Below, piece by piece: positions 25,396 to 62,875 of a DNA stretch of 64,000 nt; position 1 is the first letter of the stretch; each line of letters begins with the position of its first letter. The translations under genes were made by a program, and so were the position numbers. The stretch comes from Escherichia phage phiC120: sequence record KY703222; one strand, given 5' to 3'. Below the pieces are notes generated by a model that was not told where the DNA came from, ran no database searches, and saw nothing but the letters and a program-made list of their open reading frames with translations.

Positions 25396-25396
<1 letters not shown>

Positions 25397-27159: not shown

Positions 27160-27161
27160 CA

Positions 27162-28295
<1,134 letters not shown>

Positions 28296-28341
28296 TCAGT
28301 TAGTTTTTTTAAATTGTACCACAATCCTTGTGGTATGTAAA

Positions 28342-28752: not shown

Positions 28753-28759
28753 AATAAAG

Positions 28760-28773
28760 TGGGACCGAAGTCC
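28760..28773 (-). terminator. hairpin GGGACCGAAGTCCC
   Basis: Perfect inverted repeat with CGAA loop between nrdB and denA. Confidence 0.45.
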
Positions 28774-28778
28774 CGTCC

Positions 28779-29954: not shown

Positions 29955-30009
29955 TATATTTTCTCACTTAGTTATTAACTCATCCATGAGTAAATTATAA
30001 TCAAAAGTC

Positions 30010-32352: not shown

Positions 32353-32607
32353 TTAATTATTCTTAGCAATAATTTCTTTGTATTCTTTAGGAGTCAAGAC
32401 CGTGATATTGAAATAAACCAACGGTTCTTTTTCCATACCGTAACCACCACAAAATTCACGATATTCATAAATTCGTTCATGTGAATAACAAACGAATCGT
32501 TCACCTTTAACTGTGATTTCACTATTTGGTGAAGGGATATCCAGTTCACTTGGATTTTTCATTTCAAAAATTGTGGTGCCATATGAATTAATAAAACGTA
32601 AAATCAT
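32353..32607 (-). CDS. hypothetical protein (84 aa), nrdA.1 position
   Basis: ORF between td and nrdA. Confidence 0.4.
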   Translation of the reverse strand: MILRFINSYGTTIFEMKNPSELDIPSPNSEITVKGERFVCYSHERIYEYREFCGGYGMEKEPLVYFNITVLTPKEYKEIIAKNN

Positions 32608-32608
32608 T

Positions 32609-33469: not shown

Positions 33470-34053
33470 TTATACACGCTCTCAGTAATTTCGGTGAGTT
33501 CATCGATTCTGTAGTAATGAGATTCTACCATAGAACGTTGAAGCATAATATCTTGGATGAAATCTTTATCAAGTTGAACGTCTGAATTAACACGACATTT
33601 CTTAATGATTTTAGTCATAACAATTTCATCAGCATAAGGCAATGCTTGTTTAAGTAGAGCAGGACCGCCGATAACCGAGACATCGACATGTTCAGTAGAA
33701 AGTTTAAACGGTACGTCTGTTGAAGGGCTGAACAAGTTAATTTCACTACCCATTACCAAGGTAATAAATTCTGCTTGGGTGATATAGAAATGTGCAAGTT
33801 CGTCGGCTTTAGTCCTAGGCAGTTTTCTGGCCATATCAATGACAACCACATGAGTACGATCTGGGAGTAGACGAGGTAATGATGCAAATGTCTTAGCACC
33901 CATAACCATTACAGTGTTTTTAGTGCGAGCAACAAAGTTACTCATATCTTGTTTGATATGCTTCCATGGAAGTCCATCACCTAATCCAAAAGCATATTCT
34001 AGTTTATCATCAACTGTTTTAGACGGAGCACATGCGAACACTAATTTAAGCAT
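33466..34053 (-). CDS. frd: dihydrofolate reductase
   Basis: 195 aa; ATGA overlap with td; AFGLGDGLPW motif close to remembered T4 Frd. Confidence 0.85.
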   Translation of the reverse strand: MLKLVFACAPSKTVDDKLEYAFGLGDGLPWKHIKQDMSNFVARTKNTVMVMGAKTFASLPRLLPDRTHVVVIDMARKLPRTKADELAHFYITQAEFITLVMGSEINLFSPSTDVPFKLSTEHVDVSVIGGPALLKQALPYADEIVMTKIIKKCRVNSDVQLDKDFIQDIMLQRSMVESHYYRIDELTEITESVYK

Positions 34054-34055
34054 TT

Positions 34056-34367
34056 TTATTTCCTCAGATTTTTCTTAACAACTTTCCAATCAGCTTTAAA
34101 CGATTCAACGTCAGAGTGGTGAATCCAGAATCCTGCACTTTCGCCGTCTTCGTAGAGTGGACATCCGTCACATTCTTCGTTCCAACCCATTTCACGTAAA
34201 GCTTCTTCAGCTTGTTCAAGGAGTTCAGCATCTTTACCAACGACGTTGAAGTACCATTTACCTTTAACTTCAGAATCTTTGATGCTCTGACGTTGTAATC
34301 TCATTTTATTCTCCTTCACTTTTGATTTGATAGGGCTACTATAACATAACCCTATCTGTTTATACAC
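34056..34367 (-). CDS. hypothetical protein (frd.1 position; start uncertain, 103 or 82 aa)
   Basis: ORF; an internal Met at 34304 is preceded by RBS GAAGGAG. Confidence 0.4.
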   Translation of the reverse strand: MYKQIGLCYSSPIKSKVKENKMRLQRQSIKDSEVKGKWYFNVVGKDAELLEQAEEALREMGWNEECDGCPLYEDGESAGFWIHHSDVESFKADWKVVKKNLRK

Positions 34368-34813
34368 TACTTTTTAAAAGTTTTTTGCAAAAGTTTGATG
34401 ATTTCGTCGACGTTGGTTTCATCTACGATACAATGGATTTTTGTTACACCTAAAGTTATACCTTCGTTAGTAGGTTGAGGCTTTACTAAATCTACCTCAG
34501 TAAAGTATTTGAACTCGTCAGGATAAATCTCAAAATAAGTTTCAATTTCACCACCGGCAGAACATACAGTACCATCTTCCATAGTTACACTTACTACGTT
34601 TGGCGTATCGTTATCATAATCAGGTTCCATTCCGTTTACAACAAAACTAGGCCCATGGAGTTCAATCAATTTTAACATCTTAGCGTTATTGTGTGGTGCT
34701 TCTTGAACAAAGTCGTCTTTAAATAAAGGGTTAATGATATAAGATTTTCCGATTTCCATTTTGATTTCCTCATTTGTTGATGTGTTGTAATAAAGATTCC
34801 GCAAACGTCTCAT
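34367..34813 (-). CDS. hypothetical protein (148 aa)
   Basis: ORF in the frd-32 cluster. Confidence 0.4.
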   Translation of the reverse strand: MRRLRNLYYNTSTNEEIKMEIGKSYIINPLFKDDFVQEAPHNNAKMLKLIELHGPSFVVNGMEPDYDNDTPNVVSVTMEDGTVCSAGGEIETYFEIYPDEFKYFTEVDLVKPQPTNEGITLGVTKIHCIVDETNVDEIIKLLQKTFKK

Positions 34814-35021
34814 ATGATTCCAGGTGTTCTTCTTTAATGCGAACTACATGATTATCACCCGAAGAATAGAACATCTGTACGATAAGAGCTTCGTAATCAG
34901 ACGAAATACATGCTACGTTTTCCGGCTTCAGGCATTCATTGTATGTCGCAACTGGGTCAGTGAAAGCTGCAACGTTTTTGCTACCGCAGTAATCCATACT
35001 TCTTTGAATAATAAAAATCAT
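34770..35021 (-). CDS. hypothetical protein (83 aa)
   Basis: ORF preceded by early-type promoter and RBS GAGAGGAAAA. Confidence 0.4.
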   Translation of the reverse strand: MIFIIQRSMDYCGSKNVAAFTDPVATYNECLKPENVACISSDYEALIVQMFYSSGDNHVVRIKEEHLESYETFAESLLQHINK

Positions 35022-35051
35022 TTTATTTTCCTCTCATTTGTTGATAAGTCT

Positions 35052-35080
35052 ATAGTATCATGTTTAAATGAAAAGTAAAC
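35052..35080 (-). promoter_or_regulatory. early-type promoter (GTTTAC -35, TACTAT -10)
   Basis: Minus strand GTTTAC-N17-TACTAT upstream of ORF 34770..35021. Confidence 0.5.
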
Positions 35081-35111
35081 AACTTTTTCGGTAATTTACA
35101 GATACTCAAAA

Positions 35112-35129
35112 GGGAGACCGAAGTCTCCC
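35112..35129 (-). terminator. gene 32 terminator hairpin GGGAGACCGAAGTCTCCC
   Basis: 18-nt perfect stem-loop followed by T-run on minus strand, just downstream of the gene 32 stop. Confidence 0.65.
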
Positions 35130-35135
35130 GATTTA

Positions 35136-36038
35136 TTATAGACCAGCTAACAGGTCATCGAGGTCACCATCATCAGAGGATGAGGTAGAGCTCATGAAGT
35201 CATCTTCAGTTTTTGCAGAACTAAAGGCTTCCATGTCTTTATCAAAATCGTCAAGGTCAGAAGCAACTTTATCTGCAACAGAAGCTGCTGCGGCTGCTGC
35301 ACCACCAAGAGCGGCAGTACCAAGAACCTTAGCGAAAGATTCATTTAATTTTTCAAAAGATTTGAACTGGTCTTTAGCCGTCAAAGTAGTAAGGTCTACC
35401 ATCTGGTCATACAGTTCTTTCTGGAATGCTTCGTCATTAATACGAGGAATTTCAGATTGACCCAAGAATTTAGATTCGTCATAGTTGCTAAAACCGGAAA
35501 CCTGCTTAGCTTTCAGAACAAAGTTAGCACCTTCAAACGGACAAGTAACGTCAACTGGAGTTTCACCCATTTCGGTATCAACAGCAATCATTGCATTGAT
35601 TTTGTCCCAAATCTTTTTACCGAAACGATATTTAAATACTTTACCTTCGTTATCTGGAGCTTGAGGGTCTTTAACAACCAGAATATTAGCCCAATAAGAA
35701 GTTTTACGTTTCAGTTGAGAATATTCAGTTTTGTTGGTATTGTATAGGTCATTTTTACTAATGTACTGACATACAGGACAAGAGTCGTAATCACCGTGTG
35801 TAGAAGAACAATTTTCAATATACCATTTACCATTTTTCTTGAAACCGTGGTTAACAAGAATTGCAAATGGTAGTGCATCATCAGTTTTTGCTGGCAAGAA
35901 ACGAATTACCGCTTGACCATTACCTGATGCATCTAGCTTCAGCTTCCATTCGCCTTTATCTTCTGAAGAGAAACCTTTGTTACCGTTCAGTTTAGCCATT
36001 TGAGCAGCGAGGTCAGCAGTAGATTTACGTTTAAACAT
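35136..36038 (-). CDS. 32: gp32 single-stranded DNA-binding protein
   Basis: 300 aa; [36 protein letters not shown]... close to remembered T4 gp32; acidic C-terminal tail. Confidence 0.95.
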
Positions 36039-36154
36039 TATATTTACCTTTATTTAGATTATTTAATTTATTTACAGTTGGTTGCTACGACACTTATACC
36101 TCGTAGCTGGTATGATTTATTTATAAAGTAATTTTAACACACAAGAAATAAAGC
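36039..36154 (-). promoter_or_regulatory. gene 32 leader: A/U-rich translational operator, upstream hairpin, late- and middle-promoter-like motifs
   Basis: Minus strand reads ...GCTACGAGGTATAAGTGTCGTAGC (hairpin)...AAATAAATTAAATAATCTAAATAAAGGTAAATATAATG; also TTTATAAATAAAT and AAGCTTTA motifs. Confidence 0.55.
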
Positions 36155-36808
36155 TTAATACTTACATGATTTGATTGTTTCTATGAACAATTTCTTAGCA
36201 GCATTTCCATCGATTTGAAGTATTTTTCGATATGCCTTTAATTTGGTAGAATAATTTTGCCAGACTAAATTGTCGGTGAGTTCGTCGTGCTTATCTATAA
36301 TATTCAAGAATGAATCCAACAACAAGAAGGTTTCAAACGAAATTATATTGCTTTGTAACAATTTAAATATGTAGCTCGACTGAACTTTATTATTATAATC
36401 AAATATCTCTTGAAGCGCACTAACTTCCACTTTCTTACTGAAATAGTAGATGTTACGTACGTCTTCAGCAAACGTCTCCTTGGCCTGTTTGAGACGTCCA
36501 ATATATTCCCTATAGAAAACTAATGCATCAGCGTCCGATATCTCACCAATCCATGCATCTTGGTTAGCAACTAAGTTACTGATGAATATCAAAGTGAGTT
36601 CCTTTAACTTATATTTCTCTGATAGTTTCTCAAAGAAATATTTATCTCGGCGTTTTTGATACGCATTATCCGAAACACGCATGCACCAGTTATATTTGAT
36701 TACGTCATACCGACCATTAAAATGTTGTTTGCACATCAAGTATAGTTTGTATACCGATTTTCCATTAATATAACGTTCTCCATCAGGAGGCATGCGTATT
36801 TTAATCAT
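36155..36808 (-). CDS. 59: gp59 helicase loader
   Basis: 217 aa (T4 gp59 is 217 aa); gene order 32-59-33. Confidence 0.8.
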   Translation of the reverse strand: MIKIRMPPDGERYINGKSVYKLYLMCKQHFNGRYDVIKYNWCMRVSDNAYQKRRDKYFFEKLSEKYKLKELTLIFISNLVANQDAWIGEISDADALVFYREYIGRLKQAKETFAEDVRNIYYFSKKVEVSALQEIFDYNNKVQSSYIFKLLQSNIISFETFLLLDSFLNIIDKHDELTDNLVWQNYSTKLKAYRKILQIDGNAAKKLFIETIKSCKY

Positions 36809-37143
36809 AATAAGAAATCTAACGTATTAGTTTTTTCACCACGAGCAACTGATGGGCGAAGCATATTTTCGTCAATTGCTTCACTTGTAATTTTTTCAAC
36901 AATTCCTGTAGGAATAAATTTAGCAAATTGTGTTTCTGGAATAGAATTTTCTTCCAAGAAAGCAGTTGTTGCTTCTAAATAAGACATACCAAATTGTTCA
37001 ACCATGGATTCGATAATGAATCCGTTTTCTTGACGGTCAAGCAATTTAGCGATATCATCTTTATCGTGTTTTACTGCTAATTCTTGTTCAGATAAACCGG
37101 CCTCATCAACCGGTTTAATATCACTTAGTGAAAACTGTGTCAT
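36805..37143 (-). CDS. 33: gp33 late-transcription co-activator
   Basis: 112 aa (T4 gp33 is 112 aa); acidic; gene order. Confidence 0.8.
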   Translation of the reverse strand: MTQFSLSDIKPVDEAGLSEQELAVKHDKDDIAKLLDRQENGFIIESMVEQFGMSYLEATTAFLEENSIPETQFAKFIPTGIVEKITSEAIDENMLRPSVARGEKTNTLDFLL

Positions 37144-37390
37144 AAAGCTCGACTACCTCTTCGTTTTCAGCTTCAAATTGGTCACGAGCATCTTTATGAT
37201 AAAGAGCTAACAAACGATTAAACATTTTTCCATCAACGCCAAGCTCTTCTTTAGCACGAGTACGAATGTCTTTAATCAGTTCATTATAACCAGAAATTTT
37301 AAGTTTGTTATCGGAAGCTTCCTTGACTAGTTTAGCCAGTTCTTCACCATGCACATCTTGATTAAATTCAACTGCTTCTTTCTTAGCCAT
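37121..37390 (-). CDS. dsbA: DsbA double-stranded DNA-binding protein (89 aa from internal Met)
   Basis: ORF 37121..37408 in track; Met at 37390 gives 89 aa, the T4 DsbA length; basic helical protein. Confidence 0.65.
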   Translation of the reverse strand: MAKKEAVEFNQDVHGEELAKLVKEASDNKLKISGYNELIKDIRTRAKEELGVDGKMFNRLLALYHKDARDQFEAENEEVVELYDTVFTK

Positions 37391-37397
37391 GTTTACC

Positions 37398-38315
37398 TCA
37401 GAATTCATTAATTACACTTGTTAATTTAGAAAGACCCGATTTTACAAAGTATGAATAAATCTTGCCTTTAGGTTGTTGTTTATACGAGTTATAATACTCT
37501 ATAATGGTTGAAGCAATATTATCAGGGATATAATCAAAATCAATGAGAACCAAATTTTCTTGATACCGTTTATATTCTTCTGCACTTAATAATACTTCAG
37601 CTTGAGAACGGTCATTAGCAATTGCTTCAATAATTGATGTTTTCATGCTTGGAGTTCGTTCACCTTCAACTCGAGTAAACCAGAAGTCACCACGAACTCG
37701 AACAGATGCAACACCATCTTTACGGTCGCCTTTAAGAATTTTAGTCATGCAATCAATTTCGGCAGAACCATTCTTAATTTTAACCCATTTTTTCTGTGGT
37801 GGCGACCACTGTTTAACGTTAGGATATTTGTGTAATTGTGTAAAGTCACCATCTGATGCAACAATACACACCTTATGACCAGCTAATGACAAATATTTAG
37901 TTAATACACCGATATGGTCATCCGCTTCGTATTTGTCAATATCCATTACAACATATGGCATATATTTCTTAATCTCATCAACAACTTGATGAAGTGCAGT
38001 AAAATATCCTTCCCAATCCCACTTTGAAGCTTCACGATCGGTTTTACGATTTTTCTTATAATAATAAGCAAAGTCACGACGCCAATATCCAGAAGTAGCG
38101 TTATCCATGCACAATACAAATTTTGTATAACCTTGCTTACGGAACATCACTACGTTTTTACGAATTGAATTCAAGACTACGTGACGAACCATCGGAACAG
38201 TAATTTTATCACCCTCTTCAAAGTTGTTTAATGCAGCTGCCAATGCAATGTTACTAAAGTCTGCAAGCGCAATACCTTCTTTGTAATCTTCATCCAACAT
38301 CATTTCTAAATCCAT
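37398..38315 (-). CDS. rnh: RNase H (5'-3' exonuclease / flap endonuclease)
   Basis: 305 aa (T4 RNase H is 305 aa); FEN-family acidic residue clusters; gene order. Confidence 0.9.
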   Translation of the reverse strand: MDLEMMLDEDYKEGIALADFSNIALAAALNNFEEGDKITVPMVRHVVLNSIRKNVVMFRKQGYTKFVLCMDNATSGYWRRDFAYYYKKNRKTDREASKWDWEGYFTALHQVVDEIKKYMPYVVMDIDKYEADDHIGVLTKYLSLAGHKVCIVASDGDFTQLHKYPNVKQWSPPQKKWVKIKNGSAEIDCMTKILKGDRKDGVASVRVRGDFWFTRVEGERTPSMKTSIIEAIANDRSQAEVLLSAEEYKRYQENLVLIDFDYIPDNIASTIIEYYNSYKQQPKGKIYSYFVKSGLSKLTSVINEF

Positions 38316-38393
38316 ATGAACCTCTTGTTCAGTTAGTCAACTTAGACCATAGTAACATACTAGTTCGAAAGCGTAAATAGTCTTTTACTCATT

Positions 38394-38401
38394 TATAAAT
38401 A
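38394..38401 (+). promoter_or_regulatory. late promoter TATAAATA for gene 34
   Basis: Exact TATAAATA about 35 nt upstream of the gene 34 start. Confidence 0.65.
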
Positions 38402-38435
38402 GTAAAATAGAACACATAATGATAAGAGGACTACC

Positions 38436-41400
38436 ATGGTTGACATCAAACGTAAGTTCAGGGCCGAAGATGGTCTTGACGCAGGCGGTGATAAGATAGT
38501 TAACGTTGCGCTTGCTGACCGCACAGTTGGCACCGATGGCGTGAACGTTGACTTTTTGGTGCAAGAAAACACCGTACAGAATTATGACGATACGCGCGCG
38601 TATACAAAAGATTTTATTGTTCTTTATGATAATCGTTTTTATCAAGCTTTAAGCGATATTCCAGCTCCGGCAGGCCCTTTCTCTTTGGCTAAATGGAAGG
38701 CAACTCGTACAGATGCAGAATGGATTACAGTTCAAGGCGGAGATTTCCAATTATCAGTAGGTAACTCTATTGCGGTTGATACTTCAGCTGGCACTGATAT
38801 TAATTTCACTTTGCCTCAAAATCCTTTAGATGGCGATACAGTTATTTTGTCTGATATTGGCGGTAGAGTAGGCTATGTAAAAGTTCAAATTACTGCAGCG
38901 GCTCAAAGTATTGTAAACTTTAGAGGACAGCAGGTTCGTTCAGTTTTAATGACGCACCCAAAATCTAAAATGGTCTTCATTTTTAGCAACCGCCTATGGC
39001 AAATGTATGTTTCTGATTACGAACGTAATGCAGTCACAGTAACTCCTGCTAAGCCATATCAGGCGCAACCTAACGATTTTATCATTCGACGTTTTACATC
39101 AGCCGCTCCTATTAATATTACATTGCCTCGCAATGCTAATAATGGCGATATTATTAATTTAGTTGTTTTAGACAAATTAAACCCATTATATCACACAATT
39201 GTCAAAACTTACGATGATACAACTTCTATACGAGAAGCCGGTGTTCATGTAGCAGAAGGACGTAATACTGCGGAAGCATTCTTTGTTTATGATTCTGCTA
39301 ATAGCTTATGGCGTGTTTGGGAAGGTGACCAGAAATCTCGTTTACGTATAGTTCGTAATGATACTGATTTACACCCTAATGAAGAAGTTCTTGTTTTTGG
39401 AACTAATAATGATACAATCTCGACGGTAAATCTTACTTTGCCTACAGATATTTTGTCTGGTGATACTGTTAAAATATCGTTGAATTATATGCGTAAAGGG
39501 CAAACTGTAAAAATTAAAGCTGCCGAAGGCGATACAATTGCTAGCAGTATTTCTTTATTACAGTTCCCAAAACGTTCAGAGTATCCACCTGATGCACAAT
39601 GGGTTTCTGTTAATGAGTTGGAATTTAATGGTGATACTTCGTATGTACCTGTACTTGAGTTAGCTTATATAGAAGATTATTCATCTGAAACAAAATATTG
39701 GGTAGTTCAACAAAACACCGTAACCGTCGAACGAGTCGATGCATCGAGCAATACAACTCGAGCTCGTTTAGGTGTTATTGCTCTTGCTTCTCAAGCGCAA
39801 GCAAATGTTGATTTAGAAAATGCTCCTGGTAAAGAACTGGCTATTACTCCGGAAACATTAGCAAATCGTACAGCAACTGAAACTCGTCGTGGTATTGCTC
39901 GTATTGCAACAACTGCACAAGTTAACCAGAACACCGATTTTGCATTCCAAGACGACTTGATTATTTCTCCTAAGAAATTGAACGAACGTACAGCAACTGA
40001 AACCCGTAGAGGTGTTGCTGAAGTTGCAACTCAGGCTGAAACTAATGCTGGCACAGATGATACCACTATTATTACTCCTAAGAAATTGGATGCTCGTCAA
40101 GGTTCTGAAGTTTTATCTGGTATTGTAAAATACACATCTACGACTGGTACTACAGCTGCTACTATTCGTGGTAATGCTGGGACTAACGTTTATAACAAAG
40201 CTGTAGATAATTTAACTATTTCTCCAAAGGCTCTTGACCAGTATAAAGCTACCCCTACTCAACAGGGCGCAGTAATTCTTGCTATTGAAAGTGAAGTTAT
40301 CGCTGGCGAATCACAAGCCGGTTGGGCTAATGCTGTAGTGACTCCTGAAACTCTGCATAAGAAAACTTCTACTGATGGACGTATTGGTTTAATTGAAATT
40401 GCTACGCAAGCAGAAACTAACACTGGAACTGATTATACTAGAGCAGTAACGCCTAAGACGTTAAATGATAGGAAAGCTACGGAAGGATTATCCGGCATAG
40501 CCGAAATTGCTACGCAAGTTGAATTTGATACTGGAACTGACGATACTCGTATCTCGTCTCCACTGAAAATTAAAACTCATTTTGATTCTTCTGACCGTAC
40601 CAGTGTTAATTCTGATTCCGGACTTATTGAAGAAGGAACCTTGTGGAACCATTATACTCTTGATATTTCTAAAGCAAATGAAACACAACGCGGTACACTT
40701 CGCGTAGCGACCCAAGCAGAATCTAATGCAGGAACTTTAGATGATGTTCTTATTACTCCTAAAAAGCTTTTAGGGACTAAGTCCACTGAAACATCTGAAG
40801 GTGTAATTAAGGTTGCTACTCAAGATGAAACTGTAACGGGAACTTCTGCTAATACTGCTGTATCTCCTAAGAATTTAAAATGGATTGTTCAATCAGAACC
40901 AACATGGGCTGCTACTACGGCAATTCGTGGATTCGTTAAAACTTCATCTGGTTCTATTACATTCGTTGGTGACGATACTCAAGGTAGTACCCAGGACCTG
41001 AATCTTTACGAGAAAAATAGTTATGCTATTTCTCCATATGAATTAAACCGTGTACTTGCTAACTATTTGCCATTGAAAGCTAAAGCCGTAGATAGTAATC
41101 TGTTAGATGGTCTAGATTCTCTTCAGTTCATCCGTAGAGACATCGACCAGACGGTTAATGGTTCTTTAAGTCTTACTAAACAGACCAACCTGAGTGCTCC
41201 TTTAGTATCTACAAGCACTGCTTCTTTTGGGTCCGAAGCATCTGTTACTCGTAGATTAACTCTTAATGACTCTAGCGGTTCCGAAATAGTTTTCACTAAA
41301 GGAACTCAATCTCTTAGTAATAAAGAGAATTTCGTTGTTAGAGCATGGGGTAATAGCGCTACAGATGGTGCCCGTGATACAATATTTGAAGCTGGTGACG

Positions 41401-42269
41401 AAACCGGATACCATTTCTATTCTCAGCGCGCTTCTGATAATAAAGTATCATTTAATATTAATGGAACACTTTATTCAACAGGTATTGTTTCTACAAATGG
41501 ATTAAATGTTACAGGTGTTTCTACCTTTACCGGGCCTATTAGTGCTACAGGTGAAATTGTTTCTAGTTCTCCTATTGCATTCAGAGCTATTAACGGTAAC
41601 TATGGTGTTATGCTTTATAATGCTGGTGACAGTTCTTATATTGCATTAACTAACTCAGGTGACCAGACAGGGACGTTTAATAACTTACGCCCGATCACGA
41701 TTAACAATGCCACAGGATTAGTTCGTCTTGACAATGGTGTTCAAATCACAAGTGGTGCAACAATAACTACCGGTGGGTTAACTGTAAATAACAGGATTAT
41801 TTCTAATGGCGTTAAAACTGCCACTGTTTATACCGATAAACCAACAGCTTCTACTGTAGGTTTTTGGTCTATTGACATTAACGATTCTGCTGTATATAGC
41901 CAATTCCCTGGTTACTGGACACGTGATAACAAAGGTAACCGTGACCAAGAAATTAAATATCCTGGTACTTTGACTCAATTCGGCAATAGCTTAGATTCGC
42001 TTTATCAGGATTGGATTTGTTATCCTACAGGTGCAAATGGTGGTAGTATTCGTTATACTCGTACCTGGCAGAAAAATAAAGATGCTTGGACTTCATTTGC
42101 AATGGTATTTGATAGTGGCAACCCACCTTCACCTAGCGATGTCGGTGCTATCCCATCTGATAATGCTGTTATTGGAAACCTTACTGTTCGAGACTTCTTA
42201 CAATTAGGAAATGTGAGAATTGTTCCAGACCCGGTTAACAAAACCGTTAAATTTATATGGGTTGAATAA
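38436..42269 (+). CDS. 34: gp34 long tail fibre proximal subunit
   Basis: 1277 aa (T4 gp34 about 1289 aa); internal tandem ~35-aa ATxAE...GTDDT..ITPKKL repeats; gene order 34-35-36-37-38. Confidence 0.9.
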   Translation: MVDIKRKFRAEDGLDAGGDKIVNVALADRTVGTDGVNVDFLVQENTVQNYDDTRAYTKDFIVLYDNRFYQALSDIPAPAGPFSLAKWKATRTDAEWITVQGGDFQLSVGNSIAVDTSAGTDINFTLPQNPLDGDTVILSDIGGRVGYVKVQITAAAQSIVNFRGQQVRSVLMTHPKSKMVFIFSNRLWQMYVSDYERNAVTVTPAKPYQAQPNDFIIRRFTSAAPINITLPRNANNGDIINLVVLDKLNPLYHTIVKTYDDTTSIREAGVHVAEGRNTAEAFFVYDSANSLWRVWEGDQKSRLRIVRNDTDLHPNEEVLVFGTNNDTISTVNLTLPTDILSGDTVKISLNYMRKGQTVKIKAAEGDTIASSISLLQFPKRSEYPPDAQWVSVNELEFNGDTSYVPVLELAYIEDYSSETKYWVVQQNTVTVERVDASSNTTRARLGVIALASQAQANVDLENAPGKELAITPETLANRTATETRRGIARIATTAQVNQNTDFAFQDDLIISPKKLNERTATETRRGVAEVATQAETNAGTDDTTIITPKKLDARQGSEVLSGIVKYTSTTGTTAATIRGNAGTNVYNKAVDNLTISPKALDQYKATPTQQGAVILAIESEVIAGESQAGWANAVVTPETLHKKTSTDGRIGLIEIATQAETNTGTDYTRAVTPKTLNDRKATEGLSGIAEIATQVEFDTGTDDTRISSPLKIKTHFDSSDRTSVNSDSGLIEEGTLWNHYTLDISKANETQRGTLRVATQAESNAGTLDDVLITPKKLLGTKSTETSEGVIKVATQDETVTGTSANTAVSPKNLKWIVQSEPTWAATTAIRGFVKTSSGSITFVGDDTQGSTQDLNLYEKNSYAISPYELNRVLANYLPLKAKAVDSNLLDGLDSLQFIRRDIDQTVNGSLSLTKQTNLSAPLVSTSTASFGSEASVTRRLTLNDSSGSEIVFTKGTQSLSNKENFVVRAWGNSATDGARDTIFEAGDETGYHFYSQRASDNKVSFNINGTLYSTGIVSTNGLNVTGVSTFTGPISATGEIVSSSPIAFRAINGNYGVMLYNAGDSSYIALTNSGDQTGTFNNLRPITINNATGLVRLDNGVQITSGATITTGGLTVNNRIISNGVKTATVYTDKPTASTVGFWSIDINDSAVYSQFPGYWTRDNKGNRDQEIKYPGTLTQFGNSLDSLYQDWICYPTGANGGSIRYTRTWQKNKDAWTSFAMVFDSGNPPSPSDVGAIPSDNAVIGNLTVRDFLQLGNVRIVPDPVNKTVKFIWVE
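39840..40880 (+). repeat. tandem ~35-aa coding repeats within gp34 (fibrous repeat units)
   Basis: At least six copies of T-ETRRG-A-IATxAxxNxGTDxTxxITPKxL-like units in the translated sequence. Confidence 0.6.
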
Positions 42270-42277
42270 GAGGTTAT

Positions 42278-43402
42278 ATGGAAAAATTTATGGCAAGGTT
42301 TGGACAGGGATACGTCCAAACGCCATTTTTATCGGAAAGCAATTCAGTTAGATTTAAACTAAGTATAGCGGGTTCATGCCCGCTTTCAACAACTAATCCG
42401 TATATTTTGTTCCAAAATGAGCCTTTAGGGTTGCAGTCTTTTGGTATTGGACTAAATGTTAGGGTAATAAATCCGGAAAATGGAACTATAGTTGATAGTA
42501 AATTATACAATTTTGCGCCTACAAATAATGCAACTTCAGCTGCATTTATTTCGTTTGTTAATACATACGCAGATAATTTCATTTTCGCATTTATTTCTAA
42601 TAACAAATTTAATTTGCCGCCAGAAATAATTGAATGGTTTAAAGCTGCCGGGAGTTCAGTTATACCGTCAATTGAAGTTGCTAGTCTTGTTGATATTTCA
42701 TATTCAGCGTTTTATGTTTCAGGTAAAAATACTATTGCATTAGAACACATAAAATACAGTAATAAGAAAACAATTTCGGATTACTCAACTCCATTAGATA
42801 TTGTATATGACTCTATTGCTGATATAGGTGCTACCGGCTATCCTAGACGTACATATGAAGCTCTAGAAACGTTTTTATCTCCTGTTGGAAGAACTAACAA
42901 TGAAATAAAAAGGATGCCTACATCATCCCTTGTTACTCCTATCGCAAACTATGGATTAAAGCCTACAGATTTTCTTTATTTGAAATTTCAATTAATGGCT
43001 GATGAAGCATTACTAGAGGAAGGAACCACAAGACTTTCAATTCGTTTCTTTAAGTCTCCATCTAGCTCTCCTATATTGTCTAAAGATATAAACTTTGACG
43101 GAACTGCTGGTGAATGGAAGCTATATGAAGAATACGTTGAAATACCAGCTGAAGCCGATGGCTTTACAGTATATTGTTACCGTACGGCCCCAGTCGGTCA
43201 AGGTGGACTAAGAAATGTTATTTTCACTGAAGTATCATGTAACGGAAGTATAGCAAAACCTGCCGAGTTTGGCCTAAACGGTATTCGTGCTAATTACATC
43301 GATGAATCATTAATCGGTAATGATATAATGGACTTGCCTACTCAGTTATCTAACGACACAGGTAAGGTATTTGGGCAGGAATTTAAAGAGTACACAGAAT
43401 AA
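42278..43402 (+). CDS. 35: gp35 long tail fibre hinge (knee) protein
   Basis: 374 aa (T4 gp35 about 372 aa); gene order. Confidence 0.8.
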   Translation: MEKFMARFGQGYVQTPFLSESNSVRFKLSIAGSCPLSTTNPYILFQNEPLGLQSFGIGLNVRVINPENGTIVDSKLYNFAPTNNATSAAFISFVNTYADNFIFAFISNNKFNLPPEIIEWFKAAGSSVIPSIEVASLVDISYSAFYVSGKNTIALEHIKYSNKKTISDYSTPLDIVYDSIADIGATGYPRRTYEALETFLSPVGRTNNEIKRMPTSSLVTPIANYGLKPTDFLYLKFQLMADEALLEEGTTRLSIRFFKSPSSSPILSKDINFDGTAGEWKLYEEYVEIPAEADGFTVYCYRTAPVGQGGLRNVIFTEVSCNGSIAKPAEFGLNGIRANYIDESLIGNDIMDLPTQLSNDTGKVFGQEFKEYTE

Positions 43403-43403
43403 A

Positions 43404-43419
43404 GGAGACCGAAGTCTCC
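43404..43419 (+). terminator. terminator hairpin GGAGACCGAAGTCTCC plus T-run after gene 35
   Basis: Perfect stem-loop followed by TTTT. Confidence 0.6.
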
Positions 43420-43427
43420 TTTTCGCG

Positions 43428-43435
43428 TATAAATA
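43428..43435 (+). promoter_or_regulatory. late promoter TATAAATA for gene 36
   Basis: Exact TATAAATA about 27 nt upstream of the gene 36 ATG. Confidence 0.65.
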
Positions 43436-43461
43436 CTTTAATATTAATAAGGAGACACGAA

Positions 43462-44118
43462 ATGGCCGATTTAAAAGCCGGAAGTACAGTTGGTGGTTCC
43501 GTCATATGGCATCAAGGCAATTTTCCTTTAATGCCAGCTGGCGATGACATCCTATATAAAACATTTAAATTATACACTGAATATAACAAGCCAAAAGCGG
43601 CTGATAACGATTTCGTATCTAAAGCAAACGGCGGGACATATCTCAAAAAGGTAATCTTTAACGAAGGTGTTGCAGTCAAAACAGCAGATGACCAAACGAA
43701 TGGTATTTTTTCTGGTGGTGGTGACGCCGCGACATTCGACCAAACAAACATGGATATTGTTTCGTGGTATGGTATTGGGTTTAAATCATCTCAAGGTACC
43801 GGTGAAAGAACTGTTGTAATTGATACTCGCACCGGTAATATAAGTTCTAAAGGCGTTATTGAAGCATCTCAATTCAGAGCCACAACGTTAGCACCTTTAA
43901 ATAATTACGACCTTACTCGCAAAGATTATGTTGATAGTCAAATAAATACAGTTAATGCTAATGCAAACAGTCGCGTACTCCGTTCAGGAGATACGATGAC
44001 CGGCGCTCTAACAGCCCCAAACTTTTTCTCACAGAATCCTGCATCTCAACCCTCGCATGTTCCACGATTTGACCAAATTGTTATTAAGGATTCTGTTCAA
44101 GATTTCGGCTATTATTAA
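43462..44118 (+). CDS. 36: gp36 long tail fibre distal connector
   Basis: 218 aa (T4 gp36 about 221 aa); gene order. Confidence 0.8.
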   Translation: MADLKAGSTVGGSVIWHQGNFPLMPAGDDILYKTFKLYTEYNKPKAADNDFVSKANGGTYLKKVIFNEGVAVKTADDQTNGIFSGGGDAATFDQTNMDIVSWYGIGFKSSQGTGERTVVIDTRTGNISSKGVIEASQFRATTLAPLNNYDLTRKDYVDSQINTVNANANSRVLRSGDTMTGALTAPNFFSQNPASQPSHVPRFDQIVIKDSVQDFGYY

Positions 44119-54828: not shown

Positions 54829-55449
54829 TTAAAGATGAAGATACCACCCGTTGTAGTTGCTCTTACGAACGATTTTCTTTAGGTCTTCATGGTCTCCCAC
54901 GAACTTTATAGAATAAGAGAAGACGTCAGGTGAGGTTTCTTTGACATTCAATATAATAATACAGTCTGCAACTCGATGATTCAGGAAGGGCCCTATGTTG
55001 ATTCCGTTGCCACCCGGATAATCACCACTGTATCCTGTGGTAACAGAAATCCATTTAGAATCCATCTGATGTGTCTTGACTTCTACACGAATTCCACAAT
55101 ATTTAGGATGGGCTAACACGTCCCATGCATACGTGTACGGGTCTTCTACGTCTTCATTACCTTTATTAACATATCCGTCTAGCCAATTTGCTACTACATA
55201 CTCTGCAAAGACTGCAACCTTACAACGTCGAACTACATCTTCTTTGTTTTGGTCTGGATTTTGGCTCAATGAATATCGAGCAGTGTCAGCAATCTTCACT
55301 TTCATTTCACTAGTCAAAAACTCATTCGACAGGATAAATGTCGGAAGATTCTTCAGTCTCAACAGTCCCAAGTTCGTCTTTACCATAGATACCTCTGATG
55401 TGTAGTTCGCCAAAATAAATGCGGTCTCCTTCTTCAAGATAGTTAGCAT
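54829..55449 (-). CDS. hypothetical protein, possibly DenB-like (start uncertain)
   Basis: 206-aa ORF near rIIB where T4 encodes endonuclease IV (denB); overlaps ORF 55322..55609 by 128 nt, so one start is wrong; no catalytic motif confirmed. Confidence 0.4.
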   Translation of the reverse strand: MLTILKKETAFILANYTSEVSMVKTNLGLLRLKNLPTFILSNEFLTSEMKVKIADTARYSLSQNPDQNKEDVVRRCKVAVFAEYVVANWLDGYVNKGNEDVEDPYTYAWDVLAHPKYCGIRVEVKTHQMDSKWISVTTGYSGDYPGGNGINIGPFLNHRVADCIIILNVKETSPDVFSYSIKFVGDHEDLKKIVRKSNYNGWYLHL

Positions 55450-56595: not shown

Positions 56596-58809
56596 TTATT
56601 TGGCCGCTTCCACGGCCTTCATGAATTTAACGATTTGAGCGACCTGTTCTTTGGAAAGAGTACCACGTCGTCCCATGTAGTCTGACACAATATGATAATT
56701 GGTTTCGAATTCAATAACCATTTTATCATCATTATCGTAAGCATTATCTTTAAGCTTATCGAAAATTTTAGCACACAATTCTAACTTCTTATTCAGTTCT
56801 CTGTTAGTAGCACCTGAGAATCGATTCCATCCCCAACGATTATTTACTGTTGAGAGTTTTGCAAAATCTTTACTGATTTCTTTGTTCTTAGAGCTAAAAT
56901 ACTTACTAAGGAAGTTAAGCTCTTCATTACGAGTAATATGATTCAAATAAGGTTGAGCTCTACGACTTGGTGATACATACTCATCATAATCCACTTTATC
57001 GATTAGCGTAATATAGTCATTAATTGATTTTTCGAACAAGCATTCTACTTCACCAAGTTTACGAACTTTCTTAGCAATCTGCGGACGAACTACAGTGAAC
57101 TCTTTAATACCTGACAAATCAGCAATACGGGTCAAGAAATTGGAGTCATAGTTCAACCAACCTTTATCTGCGTCAAGACATTCAGCATTAGAACGATTAC
57201 GAACTATAGCATAACCTTGGATTTCATCTGCTTCACTTGCCGGAATAAAGAGGTCTTCTGATACCCAAACATCGTTTTCATTCTTAAAGAATCGATGAGC
57301 ACTTGGCGATTTAGGACGAGGCTCATTAGTCCGTTTCCTGACTTCAATCCATGGCTTAACGATTTGTAAAAGCTCTGAAGTCTTGTACATGTTAATGTTG
57401 TCGCCATCAAAGATAACTTTAAGGCGTTCCAGAAGTTTCATTGCATCTTCGTCTGTAGGGTCAACGAATATTACGCTTTTACCAAAACCGCGCGGAACTT
57501 TACCAGTTAATTTAACCTCGTCTTTAGACATTTCAATTGAATTAAGAGCTCGCATTAATGGAACGCGTCCCTTAACGTCGTCAATAACAATTTCAACGTT
57601 TTTAATGTTAATGCCAATCAGACTGTTAATTGAAATGGTTGCCGTTGAGCTACCGCTTTCACGAATACGGCGAAGACGAGTGGATTCAACGATATCGTAT
57701 ACTACGCCAAGATTACACCACTCAGGCCCCATTTTAAAACGTTTGTACAACTCAGAATAAGTTAGTTGTTCTTTGGAGTATTTCAGTGATTCAATATTAG
57801 ACCCAGCCTTTTCCATGTATTTACGAGCGGTATAGCCAAGAGAATCAATTTCACGGAACACATGACGTGGGTATTTACAATCAATCCATTTCTTAGAATC
57901 TTCAGCGAACAATTTAGCATCTATTTCTGCAACGCGTTTATGGATATTTGCTACTGTACGTTTATCAAACGACAATGCTTCACGAGACGGGGCTACATCT
58001 AGTTCACCCATAGGGAATTTAATATAAGCTGTAGTGCATCGTGTCATCATCCATGTTTGTTCTTTAATAACACTTCCGATTGGATATACAATACCGCCAT
58101 AAACAGCCATGATATTACCACGTTCACCCCATGGAGCTTCCTTGGCCAAATATACATCGTCAAATTCAGGGAAGTATTTAATATCTTTAACACCACGAAC
58201 TTCTGCAATATCACCTAGAGGACGCATAACATATGCAATTTCGGATGCAAACTTTTCAAAATCTTCCGGGTTAACCGGTACAACTACTTCTACACCCGTA
58301 CGGTCGTCAGGACCCATCTTATCTACAAATGTCGGCTTAATTTGTGGACCTGTGTCATCTTGGTAGATTACGTAACCACGAACTTCACCGTTGTGATAAG
58401 ACGTAAGGTTAAACGTATCAGTATATGCTAATGGAGCTTTAGAACCGAGTCCGAATCCACCGATGAAATCGTTACTCGATGTTTTAGTTGAAGCAAAATA
58501 TGAGTTATAGATTCCTGGCTCTTCGTCATTACCTCGAATGGTGAAATCACTCATACCAGGACCAAAGTCTCGAACTACAAAACGTGGGTCTAAACGACCT
58601 GGAGCCTGAACAATAAACTTATCAGTGCAACCATTAAGAATTTGTCCATCGATACAGTTTGTAATTAATTCACGTACACAAGCCAATTCTTTGTTTGTAT
58701 AAAGGTCATTAGACAAAATCTTATAAACTTTGCTATTGCCTTGAATAGTGAATGCTGTGCTCTTACCACCTGAACCAATAATCGTTTCTTTAGCCGTTTC
58801 AATAATCAT
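56596..58809 (-). CDS. rIIA: RIIA (membrane-associated, GHKL-like ATPase N-terminal region)
   Basis: 737 aa (T4 rIIA about 725 aa); N-terminal ELITNCIDG / GxGxS-like ATPase motifs; order rIIA-rIIB. Confidence 0.9.
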   Translation of the reverse strand: MIIETAKETIIGSGGKSTAFTIQGNSKVYKILSNDLYTNKELACVRELITNCIDGQILNGCTDKFIVQAPGRLDPRFVVRDFGPGMSDFTIRGNDEEPGIYNSYFASTKTSSNDFIGGFGLGSKAPLAYTDTFNLTSYHNGEVRGYVIYQDDTGPQIKPTFVDKMGPDDRTGVEVVVPVNPEDFEKFASEIAYVMRPLGDIAEVRGVKDIKYFPEFDDVYLAKEAPWGERGNIMAVYGGIVYPIGSVIKEQTWMMTRCTTAYIKFPMGELDVAPSREALSFDKRTVANIHKRVAEIDAKLFAEDSKKWIDCKYPRHVFREIDSLGYTARKYMEKAGSNIESLKYSKEQLTYSELYKRFKMGPEWCNLGVVYDIVESTRLRRIRESGSSTATISINSLIGINIKNVEIVIDDVKGRVPLMRALNSIEMSKDEVKLTGKVPRGFGKSVIFVDPTDEDAMKLLERLKVIFDGDNINMYKTSELLQIVKPWIEVRKRTNEPRPKSPSAHRFFKNENDVWVSEDLFIPASEADEIQGYAIVRNRSNAECLDADKGWLNYDSNFLTRIADLSGIKEFTVVRPQIAKKVRKLGEVECLFEKSINDYITLIDKVDYDEYVSPSRRAQPYLNHITRNEELNFLSKYFSSKNKEISKDFAKLSTVNNRWGWNRFSGATNRELNKKLELCAKIFDKLKDNAYDNDDKMVIEFETNYHIVSDYMGRRGTLSKEQVAQIVKFMKAVEAAK

Positions 58810-58821: not shown

Positions 58822-59022
58822 TCACAAGTTACGTTTAAAAATTTCCGCTACTTCAAGAAGTTCTTCTTTAGTAGCTGTATCGGTTTGTATTTTATATCGA
58901 ATTTCTTTAAAGCGTTCTTTAAAGAACTCTGCTGACTCGATATCAAAAAATCTTTGGATAAGCCGGAATTCCCGGAGCACCGCTTTATCAAAAAGTTCCA
59001 AGTTCACGTTATATGTTCTCAT
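58822..59022 (-). CDS. hypothetical small protein, rIIA.1 position
   Basis: 66-aa ORF immediately upstream of rIIA. Confidence 0.5.
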   Translation of the reverse strand: MRTYNVNLELFDKAVLREFRLIQRFFDIESAEFFKERFKEIRYKIQTDTATKEELLEVAEIFKRNL

Positions 59023-59114: not shown

Positions 59115-60215
59115 TTACGCTGTGAAGATTTTATCCCACATCGCAACAACTGCATCTCGGTTATACTTCTTCCATACTGCTTCAGCACGTTTAACTCGAG
59201 CTTCGTACGTGTCAGTGAATTCTAATACAGCTTTTGTGTAAAGCGCAACTACTTCTTTCTTAGGAGTAGAGGAATCAATTTCTACACGCACAGTATCTGG
59301 GTCATATTCGAATGTCGCATGCGGATAATCCTTAAAAACTAACTGAATTACAGGGACACCTTTAGAAATGGCTTCAATAGAACTATTCTCTACCGTACCT
59401 GTGTCAGGACACGTATTAATAAGTGCTTTAGCTGTTTTAAGACGTTCCATAATTTCACTGTGTGGAGCATCAATAATAACAGGATACTTAGCCGGTGGTG
59501 CCCATTTGCTTGGACAATAACCAATACCATTTTCGCCTAGTGCTTTAATCGCTTCAAGAGCAACATCAGTACGACGCATTTTAGTGTCATAACGTTGTGC
59601 ACTAATAATCAGATCAGTCGCCGGAAGAACTTCAGGTTTCTCATTCAAACAAATAACCGGATAATCTTCGGCTTCAAACAACGGATTTGCTCGCCAATAA
59701 TCATAATCAATTTTGTCAGTCAGACCTGAAGTCATATAACAATATTTGCGTTCAAATTCACGGAAGGCTTTAGTAGGAGCATAACTCTTACCACCGTTCT
59801 TATGAATTTGAATAGTCTGGTCCCAAATTTGAACAATGCCACGAGATACCGGTTCAAATGGTGTTGCCATAAAATTCTTATGAACTTTAGAGAGGCCCGC
59901 GTCTTTAATTGCCTGAACAGTTAGTTTGGTCGGTTCCATTGTAACAACGAAATCGTACTCATTAATGCCGGCTAGTTCAACAATCTTACGAGCCATAGTA
60001 TAACTCATACCTAGACTGAATTTAGTCAGATGACCAACAGGATGATGATTAACCTTCCAATCACCAAATGTGTCATTATCAAAACCGATATAATCAATAT
60101 CGGCACCGATAGAAACTAAATATTTCAACACATTTAAATGTACTGCTTCAAGACCACCTTGTACACGTTCAGGATTAAATGGGACTGCACGAGATGGGAT
60201 AAACATAACTTTCAT
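59115..60215 (-). CDS. GT-B fold (GT4-like) glycosyltransferase; candidate DNA sugar-modification enzyme
   Basis: 366 aa; N-terminal PFNPERVQGGLEAVHLNVLKYLVSIGADIDYIGF resembles the GT4 donor-binding motif; C-terminal DTGTVENSSIEAISKGVPVIQ resembles the GT4 E-x7-E region. Confidence 0.6.
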   Translation of the reverse strand: MKVMFIPSRAVPFNPERVQGGLEAVHLNVLKYLVSIGADIDYIGFDNDTFGDWKVNHHPVGHLTKFSLGMSYTMARKIVELAGINEYDFVVTMEPTKLTVQAIKDAGLSKVHKNFMATPFEPVSRGIVQIWDQTIQIHKNGGKSYAPTKAFREFERKYCYMTSGLTDKIDYDYWRANPLFEAEDYPVICLNEKPEVLPATDLIISAQRYDTKMRRTDVALEAIKALGENGIGYCPSKWAPPAKYPVIIDAPHSEIMERLKTAKALINTCPDTGTVENSSIEAISKGVPVIQLVFKDYPHATFEYDPDTVRVEIDSSTPKKEVVALYTKAVLEFTDTYEARVKRAEAVWKKYNRDAVVAMWDKIFTA

Positions 60216-60243
60216 AATTAAGCCTTATTAAAATTAAAATGAA

Positions 60244-60260
60244 GCTCCCGAAGGAGCTTA
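60244..60260 (-). terminator. hairpin AGCTCCCGAAGGAGCT between the HNH and GT genes
   Basis: Perfect inverted repeat with CGAA loop. Confidence 0.4.
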
Positions 60261-61055
60261 GGACATCCAACACATTTTATAACCTTTGCAGGTTCTGTTA
60301 GGATTATTTAATGCTTTCAATATATTAGAAGACCCTATACCTAAATACTCCCTTAATTCATAAAGATAGTTAAAATCAATAGTTTCACCTGTTTTTACAC
60401 TTGTGATTCTTATAGGCCTTCTTTCATATTTAGATTTATACAACTCTCTAGTCTTAGCTTTAGTTTCTTCTGACCTAGGAGTGTATGGTTTAAATCCTTT
60501 TGTTTTAAATGTTTCCATTCTTGATTTAGTTATTTTATCCTGATGTTCTTTTGTTTTTACAGGTGCTTTTCGCCCATTCTCCCAAGATAACTTGTTGGCC
60601 TGTATTATTTTATCTATTGCTTCTTGCGTATGAGTTTTACCATAAAATGGATTTAATTCGCCTATACGTTGTGAAGCAATATGTGACATTAATTCTCTTG
60701 TTGCTTTAGTATGTTTTTTACCTTTAAATGGGTTGCCATTTTTAGCAATCCATTCTTTCATAAATCTAGAGTGCTCTTTAGAGAATTCTTGTTTAAGCCA
60801 ATCATAATCTCTAGAATTTCTAGCTCCTATGTAAAAAGCTCTAATAGCCATAAGCATAGAACGGTTCTTATGAATTTTATAAAGCAATAAATGGGCGATA
60901 AAATGCTCTCTAGGGGTCATTTTAACTAGATTTGATTTAGCATTACTCCCGCCCATAGATTTAGGCAAAATATGGTGAGTTTCAGTATAATTAGGAATAG
61001 TGCTGCGGTTTTTAGCCGCAGCGATAAGTTTATCATAAATTTTACGATAATTCAT
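60258..61055 (-). mobile_element. free-standing HNH homing endonuclease with NUMOD-like DNA-binding repeats (Mob-like)
   Basis: ORF 60258..61070 in track; likely start MNYRKIY at 61055 gives a TAATG overlap with the gene 39 stop; HNH motif ETHHILPKSMGGSNAKSNLVKMTPREHFIAHLL; repeated NPFKGKKHT / NPFYGKTHT units. Confidence 0.75.
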
Positions 61056-62875
61056 TATCCTAGCATCCAATCTTTACGGAGTTCAGGGTCGTTACCCATG
61101 AGCATTTCAAATAGTTCTTTCCAATTTTCAGGAAGTTTAACTACGTCGTACACAGGGTTTTGAATCATTTCTTTATATTCATCTCGCTGAAGTGAGCCCA
61201 ATCCCTTGATGTATCGAATACTATGCTTAGGAAGCGTATCTTTAGCTTCTTCATACTCAGCTACAGTATAAAACCATTTTTGAGATTTGCCAATTTGTGC
61301 AATAATTACAGGTGTTTTAACAAAGCGAATACGTCCTTGTTCAAACAATTCAGGCCAATTACTAAAGAAAGCAAGCAAAGCCGGATAGATACTTCCAAGA
61401 CCGTCATGATCGGCATCGGTCATAATTGCAATATTACGATAGTTCGTATTCTCTGCCTTTTCACCAAGAATAAGACCTGTGATAGCACAGATATCGAATA
61501 ACTCTTTGTTCTTCATCATATCAGCATATGACATACCCCAGCTATTCATCACCTTACCACGTAATGGGAATCCGCCGTGTAGTTCACGGTCACGAACATC
61601 AATGAGATATCCAATTGCCGAATCACCTTCTGTTAAGAACAATGTCGTATCTGCATCTTTACCGCATTGGTTAGCTTTAATATGCTTATGAACCTTAGCT
61701 TTAGTTGCCTTTTTAGCTGCTTTAGTTTCTGCAGCCTTTTCTGCTGCCAATTTACGAGCTAATGCTGCTTCAACAATAGGCATAATCAAGGATTCGTTTT
61801 TAAGAAGTGCCTGAGCAATTTTCTTAGCATCTAATTGGATATGATTACGAATATCACCATACGTTGACGTTAAACGTTCTTTAGTCTGAGAATCAAAACG
61901 CATGTTGCTCATGTCTCTAATAAACATCAACATTGTGAGGCATTCTTTAACACGAGCTTTAGTGACTTCAATACCCTTATATTTCTTTTTAATACCCGGC
62001 AAAAGATGTTCGCAGATATCATCCATTACACATTCAACATGATGACCACCATTTTTAGTATGGATGTTATTCACATAAGTTAAATGACGGAAGCCATCTG
62101 GTGATGTTGTGAATGCTATAGAGACTTTATCATTTTCTTGAATGATGTTATCTTCACCAAATTGTTTAGCAAATCGTTTAAAATTACCATCAACCTTTTT
62201 ACCATTAAATGTGAACTTGATATCAGGATAAACGACTGCCAATGTTTGAAGTCGGTCTAAAGTAATATCTAAATAAATTTGAGATAAATTATGCTCTTCA
62301 AATGAAGTGAAATCAGGAGTGAAGATTACTTTAGTGCCTTTACCTTTAGATTTCTTAGAAGACCATGATTTGTTTTCCATTCCGTTTGAACAGTTAACAG
62401 TGATTTCATTTTCGCCATCTGACGTGATGCCTGTAAACAACGTAGAGAAGATATTAGTTAAACTACTCCCGACGCCGTTCATACCACCAGTCTTGCGTTC
62501 AGAATCATCACCAAAGTTACCACCGGCCTTTGGAATAGTCCAGGCTGCTACAGGACCAGGAATTTGTTCACCTGTTTGGTCGGTAACTAAACCTTGAGGA
62601 ATACCACGTCCGTTATCTTCCACCGAAACTTGATTATTTTTAATTTGCACATCAATTTTATTTGCAAACTTAAATGATGTACGAATAGCTTCATCAACCG
62701 AGTTGTCAATAATCTCATCGATTAATTTAACCAGACCAGGAACATATTCAACTTGTTGATATTTACCAAACAAAAAACGCTCGTGGGCTTCTTTAGCAGA
62801 AGAACCAATATACATGCCACTACGTTTCTTAATATGTTCTACATCTGACAGTACCTTAATTTCATTTTTAATCAT
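61055..62875 (-). CDS. 39: DNA topoisomerase II large subunit (GyrB-like ATPase + Toprim), single fused 39/60-type ORF
   Basis: 606 aa continuous; GHKL ATPase N-terminus and Toprim EGDSA motif in one frame; no internal untranslated gap. Confidence 0.9.
   Translation of the reverse strand: MIKNEIKVLSDVEHIKKRSGMYIGSSAKEAHERFLFGKYQQVEYVPGLVKLIDEIIDNSVDEAIRTSFKFANKIDVQIKNNQVSVEDNGRGIPQGLVTDQTGEQIPGPVAAWTIPKAGGNFGDDSERKTGGMNGVGSSLTNIFSTLFTGITSDGENEITVNCSNGMENKSWSSKKSKGKGTKVIFTPDFTSFEEHNLSQIYLDITLDRLQTLAVVYPDIKFTFNGKKVDGNFKRFAKQFGEDNIIQENDKVSIAFTTSPDGFRHLTYVNNIHTKNGGHHVECVMDDICEHLLPGIKKKYKGIEVTKARVKECLTMLMFIRDMSNMRFDSQTKERLTSTYGDIRNHIQLDAKKIAQALLKNESLIMPIVEAALARKLAAEKAAETKAAKKATKAKVHKHIKANQCGKDADTTLFLTEGDSAIGYLIDVRDRELHGGFPLRGKVMNSWGMSYADMMKNKELFDICAITGLILGEKAENTNYRNIAIMTDADHDGLGSIYPALLAFFSNWPELFEQGRIRFVKTPVIIAQIGKSQKWFYTVAEYEEAKDTLPKHSIRYIKGLGSLQRDEYKEMIQNPVYDVVKLPENWKELFEMLMGNDPELRKDWMLG

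Follow-up and report, generated by a model that had tools for sequence, protein, structure and literature searches.

The locus between rIIA.1 and gene 39

The window, by which we mean the whole 64,000-nucleotide stretch of Escherichia phage phiC120 DNA analyzed here (KY703222), carries on its minus strand, at 59115..60215, an ATG-initiated open reading frame of 366 amino acids that encodes a GT-B glycosyltransferase (GT). An initial annotation of the DNA had placed the reading frame at exactly this position, between rIIA.1 and gene 39 with an adjacent homing endonuclease, and both the coordinates and the neighbors proved to be as it described. rIIA (56596-58809) and rIIA.1 (58822-59022; Pfam T4_RIIA1, E 1.5e-30) lie on the same strand as GT. 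Upstream of the GT start, also on the minus strand, are a spacer of 42 nt (60216..60257), the homing endonuclease with HNH and NUMOD3 domains (60258..61070; Pfam NUMOD3 E 5e-9, weak HNH matches, PHROG 655 E 1.6e-54) and the large subunit of topoisomerase II, a fused gene of the 60+39 type (61055-62875). The order rIIA.1, GT and topoisomerase II large subunit is the same in the window, in RB69 and in Bas46. Elsewhere the window holds the genes of Alc (26599-27162; Pfam PF17527, E 1.3e-41), of DenA and of a DenB-like endonuclease (54829-55449); Alc and the DenB-like protein had been recognized before.

GT is a genuine gene and not a chance reading frame, because its match to PHROG 8302 covers the full length (residues 1-366, E 7e-223), and because it occurs in 162 phage records at nucleotide identities of at least 90%, and differs from its RB69 counterpart by 34 synonymous and only 4 nonsynonymous codon changes. 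The label of PHROG 8302 is "unknown function". Overlapping short plus-strand reading frames (40-50 amino acids) at the locus found no support, a scan for sigma-70 promoters around the gene yielded 9 hits compared with 8.9 expected from shuffled sequences, and a scan of the window for Rfam families detected no RNA families. A phase-variable contingency locus, as reported for agt of T2, was ruled out, the longest homopolymer in the gene being T5.

Comparison with other phages revealed that GT is the same gene as ORF003c (gp3) of RB69 and bas46_0103 of Bas46. The RB69 protein (NP_861693) is likewise 366 amino acids long and is 98.9% identical to GT over 366/366 residues, the differences being E16D, N85H, I231A and T327I. 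A third ortholog, the glycosyltransferase of phage HY126, is 98% identical to GT with seven substitutions, and its crystal structures are public as PDB entries 9IQZ (apo) and 9IR0 (with UDP), both released on 2025-07-16. We take He et al. 2026, who established how UDP-Araf is made in HY126 (AfhE, AfhF), to be the probable source of these two entries.

The spacer in front of GT holds a hairpin (60259..60242, minus strand) with a 7-bp stem and a UUCG tetraloop followed by a T-run, located 16 nt upstream of the AAGG ribosome-binding site of GT. The entire 42-nt spacer recurs unchanged in RB69, immediately after gene 60+39, and in the Yersinia phage fPS-90, whose annotation calls the hairpin a terminator. 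The hairpin is a terminator-like site, a candidate terminator or attenuator of transcription, past which GT may be expressed by read-through or from an unrecognized promoter.

Relative to database phages, the region 39500-64000 of the window is a mosaic. GT and the endonuclease are 100% identical to those of Escherichia phage phiE142 and the surrounding 10.9 kb are 98.6% identical, while identity to phiE142 drops to 91-95% in the tail-fibre region and the upstream layout differs. The best overall match over 24.5 kb is Shigella phage ESh27 (97.5%), followed by Bas46/ChristianSchoenbein (96.3%). Both are Mosigvirus-type phages, and the window accordingly belongs to an RB69-like Mosigvirus. The phiE142 record itself (NC_055709; 121 kb, "complete") contains two baseplate modules of ~11 kb (genes 6-12), at 19059-30067 and 32574-43561, that are 99.9% identical to each other, and at the origin of the record gene 12 directly abuts gene 36. 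This arrangement is probably a misassembly, which may be the reason why phiE142 was given a genus of its own (Carettavirus) despite its Mosigvirus-like genes. The window also carries an auxiliary metabolic gene, a DAHP synthase of the AroF/G/H type that uses up erythrose-4-phosphate and PEP (22221-23213, minus strand, 330 amino acids; NCBIfam TIGR00034 at 428 bits, where the cut-off is 173; Pfam DAHP_synth_1, E 5e-75). The gene adjoins that of the dCMP deaminase and might conceivably have a link to the supply of pentose phosphates for making arabinose.

The homing endonuclease next to GT

The endonuclease reading frame shares 16 nt with the end of gene 39 (61055-61070) and terminates with TGGATGTCCTAA (WMS*; 60258-60269), which is the original terminus of gene 39 in RB69, whereas gene 39 of the window ends in DWMLG*. 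The endonuclease was thus inserted within the last codons of gene 39, which thereby acquired a new C-terminus. In RB69 and Bas46 no HNH endonuclease separates GT from gene 39, as it does in the window. Since GT sits beside gene 39 in these phages and the spacer of RB69 is identical, the insertion left GT and its leader untouched. We concluded that the endonuclease is an independent mobile insertion that lies outside the glycosylation system.

Its distribution differs from that of GT; the endonuclease was found in 29 records, Tequatroviruses among them, compared with the 162 records of GT. The Tequatrovirus fPS-90 has no GT gene and carries the same endonuclease, 99.6-99.7% identical, between rIIA.1 and gene 39. 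Alignment of fPS-90 with the window delimited a Mosigvirus-like tract (about 2620-3902 in fPS-90, corresponding to ~61455..60169 of the window) that runs from ~400 nt of the 3' end of gene 39 through the endonuclease and the hairpin into the GT reading frame, whose first 47 nt it includes. Identity within the tract is 96-100%, as opposed to 64-80% in the remainder of gene 39, and at an ATCCTGA microhomology the tract passes back into the end of the resident gene 39. It looks like a co-conversion tract, left by what appears to be a recent endonuclease-driven exchange between a phage with arabinosylated 5-hydroxycytosine and a phage with glucosylated 5-hydroxymethylcytosine (hmC), even though by report RB69 and T4-type phages do not recombine (PMC6024577). 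Judging from these alignments, the endonuclease crosses genera and GT did not go along. The initial annotation had taken the adjacent endonuclease as a sign that the GT locus is mobile. This reading fails, because RB69 and Bas46 hold GT at the same site without an endonuclease, the two genes differ in their number of records, and fPS-90 received only the 47-nt fragment of GT; the endonuclease therefore says nothing on the mobility of GT.

Fold and family of GT

Structure comparison showed that two Rossmann-like domains of GT match solved GT-B enzymes, in a model (AF2) that is poor at residues 117-186. The match to the GT-B fold, for which a profile and structure search had been proposed, thus bears out the fold suggested initially. 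The family is very small: a search of 5.8 billion proteins returned 5-6 clusters, and one of 1.84 billion representatives returned ~10 true relatives. GT itself gave 0 matches to Pfam at E<=1 and 0 to NCBIfam at E<=0.01, and the profile of the GT family matched no solved glycosyltransferase in the PDB except 9iqz. The sole sequence bridge to GT4 was P0017, a protein that aligns with residues 247-352 of GT (E 5e-5) and itself matches Pfam Glycos_transf_1.

The two motifs on which the initial annotation had relied are present. The N-terminal glycine-rich motif PERVQGGLEAVHLNVLKYL (60117..60173, minus strand) corresponds to residues 15-33, and alignments of the family showed that G20 and G21 are invariant or nearly so; R208, R214 and E94 are also conserved in the family. 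Thomas et al. (2018) aligned Gly-20 of ORF003c with Gly-15 of the T4 alpha-glucosyltransferase, which contacts the beta-phosphate (PMC6024577), and the glycine-rich motif of GT, through Gly-20, would have such a phosphate-contact role. The motif of the C-terminal domain, TGTVENSSIEAISKGVPVI (59346..59402, minus strand; residues 272-290), is a variant of the EX7E motif of GT4. BLASTP alignment to P0017 revealed that the canonical EX7E is absent, with T272 in place of the first glutamate and a one-residue insertion, that the second glutamate is kept as the invariant E281, and that another invariant glutamate, E276, is located between the two positions. Since Pfam and NCBIfam gave no match and the link through P0017 is transitive, membership in GT4 is not demonstrable by sequence. 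GT is GT4-like in its fold, and we refrain from counting it as an established GT4 member. Of the signatures claimed initially, the GT-B, GT4-like fold and the quoted motifs hold, whereas GT4 is undetectable with curated sequence models.

Bacterial retaining enzymes of the GT4 type (tll1591, BshA, PimA/PimB', WaaB, PglA/PglH, sucrose-phosphate synthase) are 10-15% identical to GT, and they differ from it in that GT has no Glycos_transf_1 or Glyco_transf_4 match and carries Thr272 at the position of the first EX7E glutamate. Furthermore, the predicted acceptor of GT is a sugar on polymeric DNA and its assigned product is beta-linked. The T4 alpha-glucosyltransferase (GT72; PDB 1Y6F/1XV5) showed no sequence similarity to GT by HMMER and ranked 32nd in the structural comparison, behind the GT4-type enzymes. 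It glucosylates hmC at the hydroxymethyl group, whereas GT is predicted to transfer arabinose to a sugar on 5-hydroxycytosine, and its position in the genome is different. Neither sequence nor closest fold ties GT to the T4 alpha- (GT72) or beta-glucosyltransferase (GT63), and it stands outside both families, as had been proposed. GT would work like a UDP-sugar transferase of the GT4 type, with a biological purpose like that of the T4 glucosyltransferases.

DNA arabinosylation and the step assigned to GT

Arabinose in RB69 DNA was described by Thomas et al. (2018), who identified ORF003c by HMM and HHpred analysis as the candidate arabinosyltransferase and thought the base to be hmC (PMC6024577). 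By MS/MS and NMR, Lee et al. (2026) found that in RB69 mono- and di-arabinosylated 5-hydroxycytosine takes the place of all cytosine, and that the modified base is beta-D-Araf-(1->3)-alpha-D-Araf-5-O-dC, its first linkage being alpha and its second beta (PMC13326640). The base of the RB69 type is therefore 5-hydroxycytosine and not hmC, with the sugar ether-linked at C5 without a methylene bridge (PMC13326640, PMC13390438); 5hodCMP is produced by a flavin-dependent homolog of thymidylate synthase (PMC13326640). In an independent study the Mosigvirus NP showed mono- and di-arabinosylation at a ratio of 1:4. The DNA of Bas46 and Bas47 is doubly arabinosylated (PMC12923530). The initial annotation had suggested a DNA sugar-modification enzyme, for example an arabinosyl-hmC transferase. 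The DNA pathway and the arabinose were right (PMC6024577, PMC13326640); the base, however, is 5-hydroxycytosine and the sugar assigned to GT is the second one.

Lee et al. designated gp46:47 of RB69 as arabinosyltransferase 1 and gp3 (ORF003c) as "beta-arabinosyltransferase 2", the latter as a prediction that is not marked as experimentally confirmed (PMC13326640). phiE142 carries the whole cluster of arabinosylation genes, consisting of a ThyA-like synthase, the first arabinosyltransferase (GT1), a U32 peptidase-like protein, a capsule-type phosphatase, an NTP-transferase/kinase and an arabinose-5-phosphate isomerase of the KpsF type. We infer that the corresponding phiC120 cluster (5hodCMP synthase, GT1 and UDP-Araf synthesis) lies beyond position 64000 of the window.

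To assign GT to a step, we compared the distribution of its family with that of GT1 (phiE142 gp063, 299 amino acids). Homologs of GT1 were present in 347 phage records, of Escherichia, Klebsiella, Serratia, Enterobacter, Proteus, Yersinia, Pseudomonas and Acinetobacter phages, including about 152 Mosigvirus-type records at identities of at least 95%. The GT family, in contrast, was confined to 210 records, namely Mosigvirus-type coliphages and Shigella phages with one copy each, Acinetobacter phages with two copies each, and one Tegunavirus. The single Tegunavirus record is a distant tblastn match (<60% identity). The Acinetobacter-phage copies sit inside the cluster, beside the kinase, GT1 and the synthase, whereas GT of the Mosigvirus relatives is ~20 kb away from GT1 and the cluster. 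The Serratia/Prodigiosinella phage LC53 has GT1 and no member of the GT family, and its DNA bears a single arabinose; Thanatos, whose DNA carries one pentose, has one glycosyltransferase, syntenic with GT1 (PMC13326640). The idea of GT and GT1 being paralogs was ruled out, as the two show no sequence similarity (BLASTP E 0.88).

Acinetobacter phage DLP3 represents the third level. Its gp76 and gp77, for which we used ADLP1_074/075 of DLP1, equated with them by gene order, belong to the same family as GT (41-44% identity over the full length). The two paralogs lie within the cluster and jointly add the third (beta-1,5) arabinose, whereas the Mosigvirus GT is single and is assigned to the second (beta-1,3). 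In vitro, gp76 and gp77 together transferred the third arabinose from UDP-Araf onto RB69 DNA, while each was active only in the presence of the other (PMC13326640); GT may likewise have a partner protein. Glycosyltransferase counts of one, two and three thus track sugar counts of one, two and three, with the GT family supplying the extra enzymes. Because of this correlation, and in agreement with the published proposal, GT most likely adds the second arabinose, a sugar on a sugar, and GT1 the base-proximal one.

Taken as a whole, the reading of GT as the "second" DNA arabinosyltransferase of Mosigviruses is one that we hold with considerable confidence as the best explanation. According to this reading, GT would be a GT-B enzyme with two Rossmann domains that binds the UDP-sugar in its C-terminal domain; the fold and the identity of the gene come from our analysis, as does its distribution, and the bound UDP from the PDB complex of the 98%-identical HY126 protein. 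Most likely it would move D-arabinofuranose from phage-made UDP-Araf to O3 of the alpha-D-Araf on 5-hydroxycytosine. The acceptor would be replicated phage DNA, and the product the beta-D-Araf-(1->3)-alpha-D-Araf-5-O-dC of RB69. For these steps the chemistry of RB69, NP and Bas46 DNA and the extension from UDP-Araf by the paralogs are taken from the literature, and it is the beta-1,3 step by GT that we infer. The thicker sugar coat would block host defenses that target DNA.

An alternative is that GT acts next to the base, placing the first arabinose straight onto the modified cytosine, as Thomas et al. proposed for ORF003c. We consider this quite unlikely, given that LC53 and Thanatos, each with one arabinose or pentose, have no member of the GT family but a GT1-type enzyme alone, encoded in synteny with the 5hodCMP synthase, that GT1 is the more widespread of the two enzymes (347 records versus 210), that the characterized paralogs of GT extend DNA which is already arabinosylated, and that the base is not the hmC of that proposal. 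The requirement of gp76 for gp77 in DLP3 (PMC13326640) raises another explanation, that GT is an obligate partner of GT1 and works in complex with it, so that there is no stand-alone second step. Pairing of the gp76/gp77 type cannot apply directly here, as each Mosigvirus record has one member of the GT family where the Acinetobacter records have two, and GT is unrelated to GT1 in sequence and ~20 kb distant from it in relatives; an obligate complex is, in our view, unlikely.

The closest solved folds belong to enzymes whose substrates are lipids, LPS and small molecules (PimA, WaaB/WaaG, BshA, tetrahydrobiopterin glycosyltransferase) and the Mosigvirus gene is located apart from the arabinosylation cluster, both of which would agree with an acceptor other than DNA, such as a host envelope lipid, LPS or a phage protein, and a merely coincidental link to DNA arabinosylation. 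Yet the family is restricted to phage lineages whose characterized members bear two or three arabinoses, its Acinetobacter-phage members are embedded in the cluster, where the kinase, GT1 and the synthase are their neighbors, and family members act on DNA in vitro, which makes a non-DNA acceptor highly improbable.

Assignment of GT to the second arabinose has a stereochemical consequence. The two arabinoses are linked differently, the first alpha and the second beta, yet both glycosyltransferases are GT4-like or resemble retaining enzymes; hence one of them must differ in its stereochemical outcome, and if both use one UDP-Araf donor, one inverts. The variant EX7E of GT is suggestive of altered stereochemistry. 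We tentatively propose that GT may be the odd one out, a GT4-like scaffold which has lost the first EX7E glutamate (Thr272, with the invariant Glu276 and Glu94) and which, with inversion, adds arabinofuranose in beta-(1->3) linkage to a sugar that duplex DNA already carries; this is a possibility that we regard as well short of probable.

Arabinosylated 5-hydroxycytosine, a hypermodification of phage DNA that was recognized only recently, stops type II restriction, the Brig1 glycosylase and type I CRISPR-Cas, while some type IV enzymes target it (PMC13216743, PMC13326640, PMC13390438). The number of arabinoses alters which defenses are evaded, so that the "second" transferase matters for the host range in phage therapy and for engineered glycosylated DNA.

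The role of GT is already known in outline, since the idea goes back to 2018, the chemistry and the assignment of the gene followed in 2025-26, and a crystal structure is public. What the present analysis offers is correct labelling rather than new biology, in that the gene can now carry the label RB69 gp3-type DNA arabinosyltransferase. Its usual annotation is "hypothetical protein", found in every annotated record among the nucleotide matches of GT listed and in nearly every Mosigvirus record of the family; the exception seen was Bas46.
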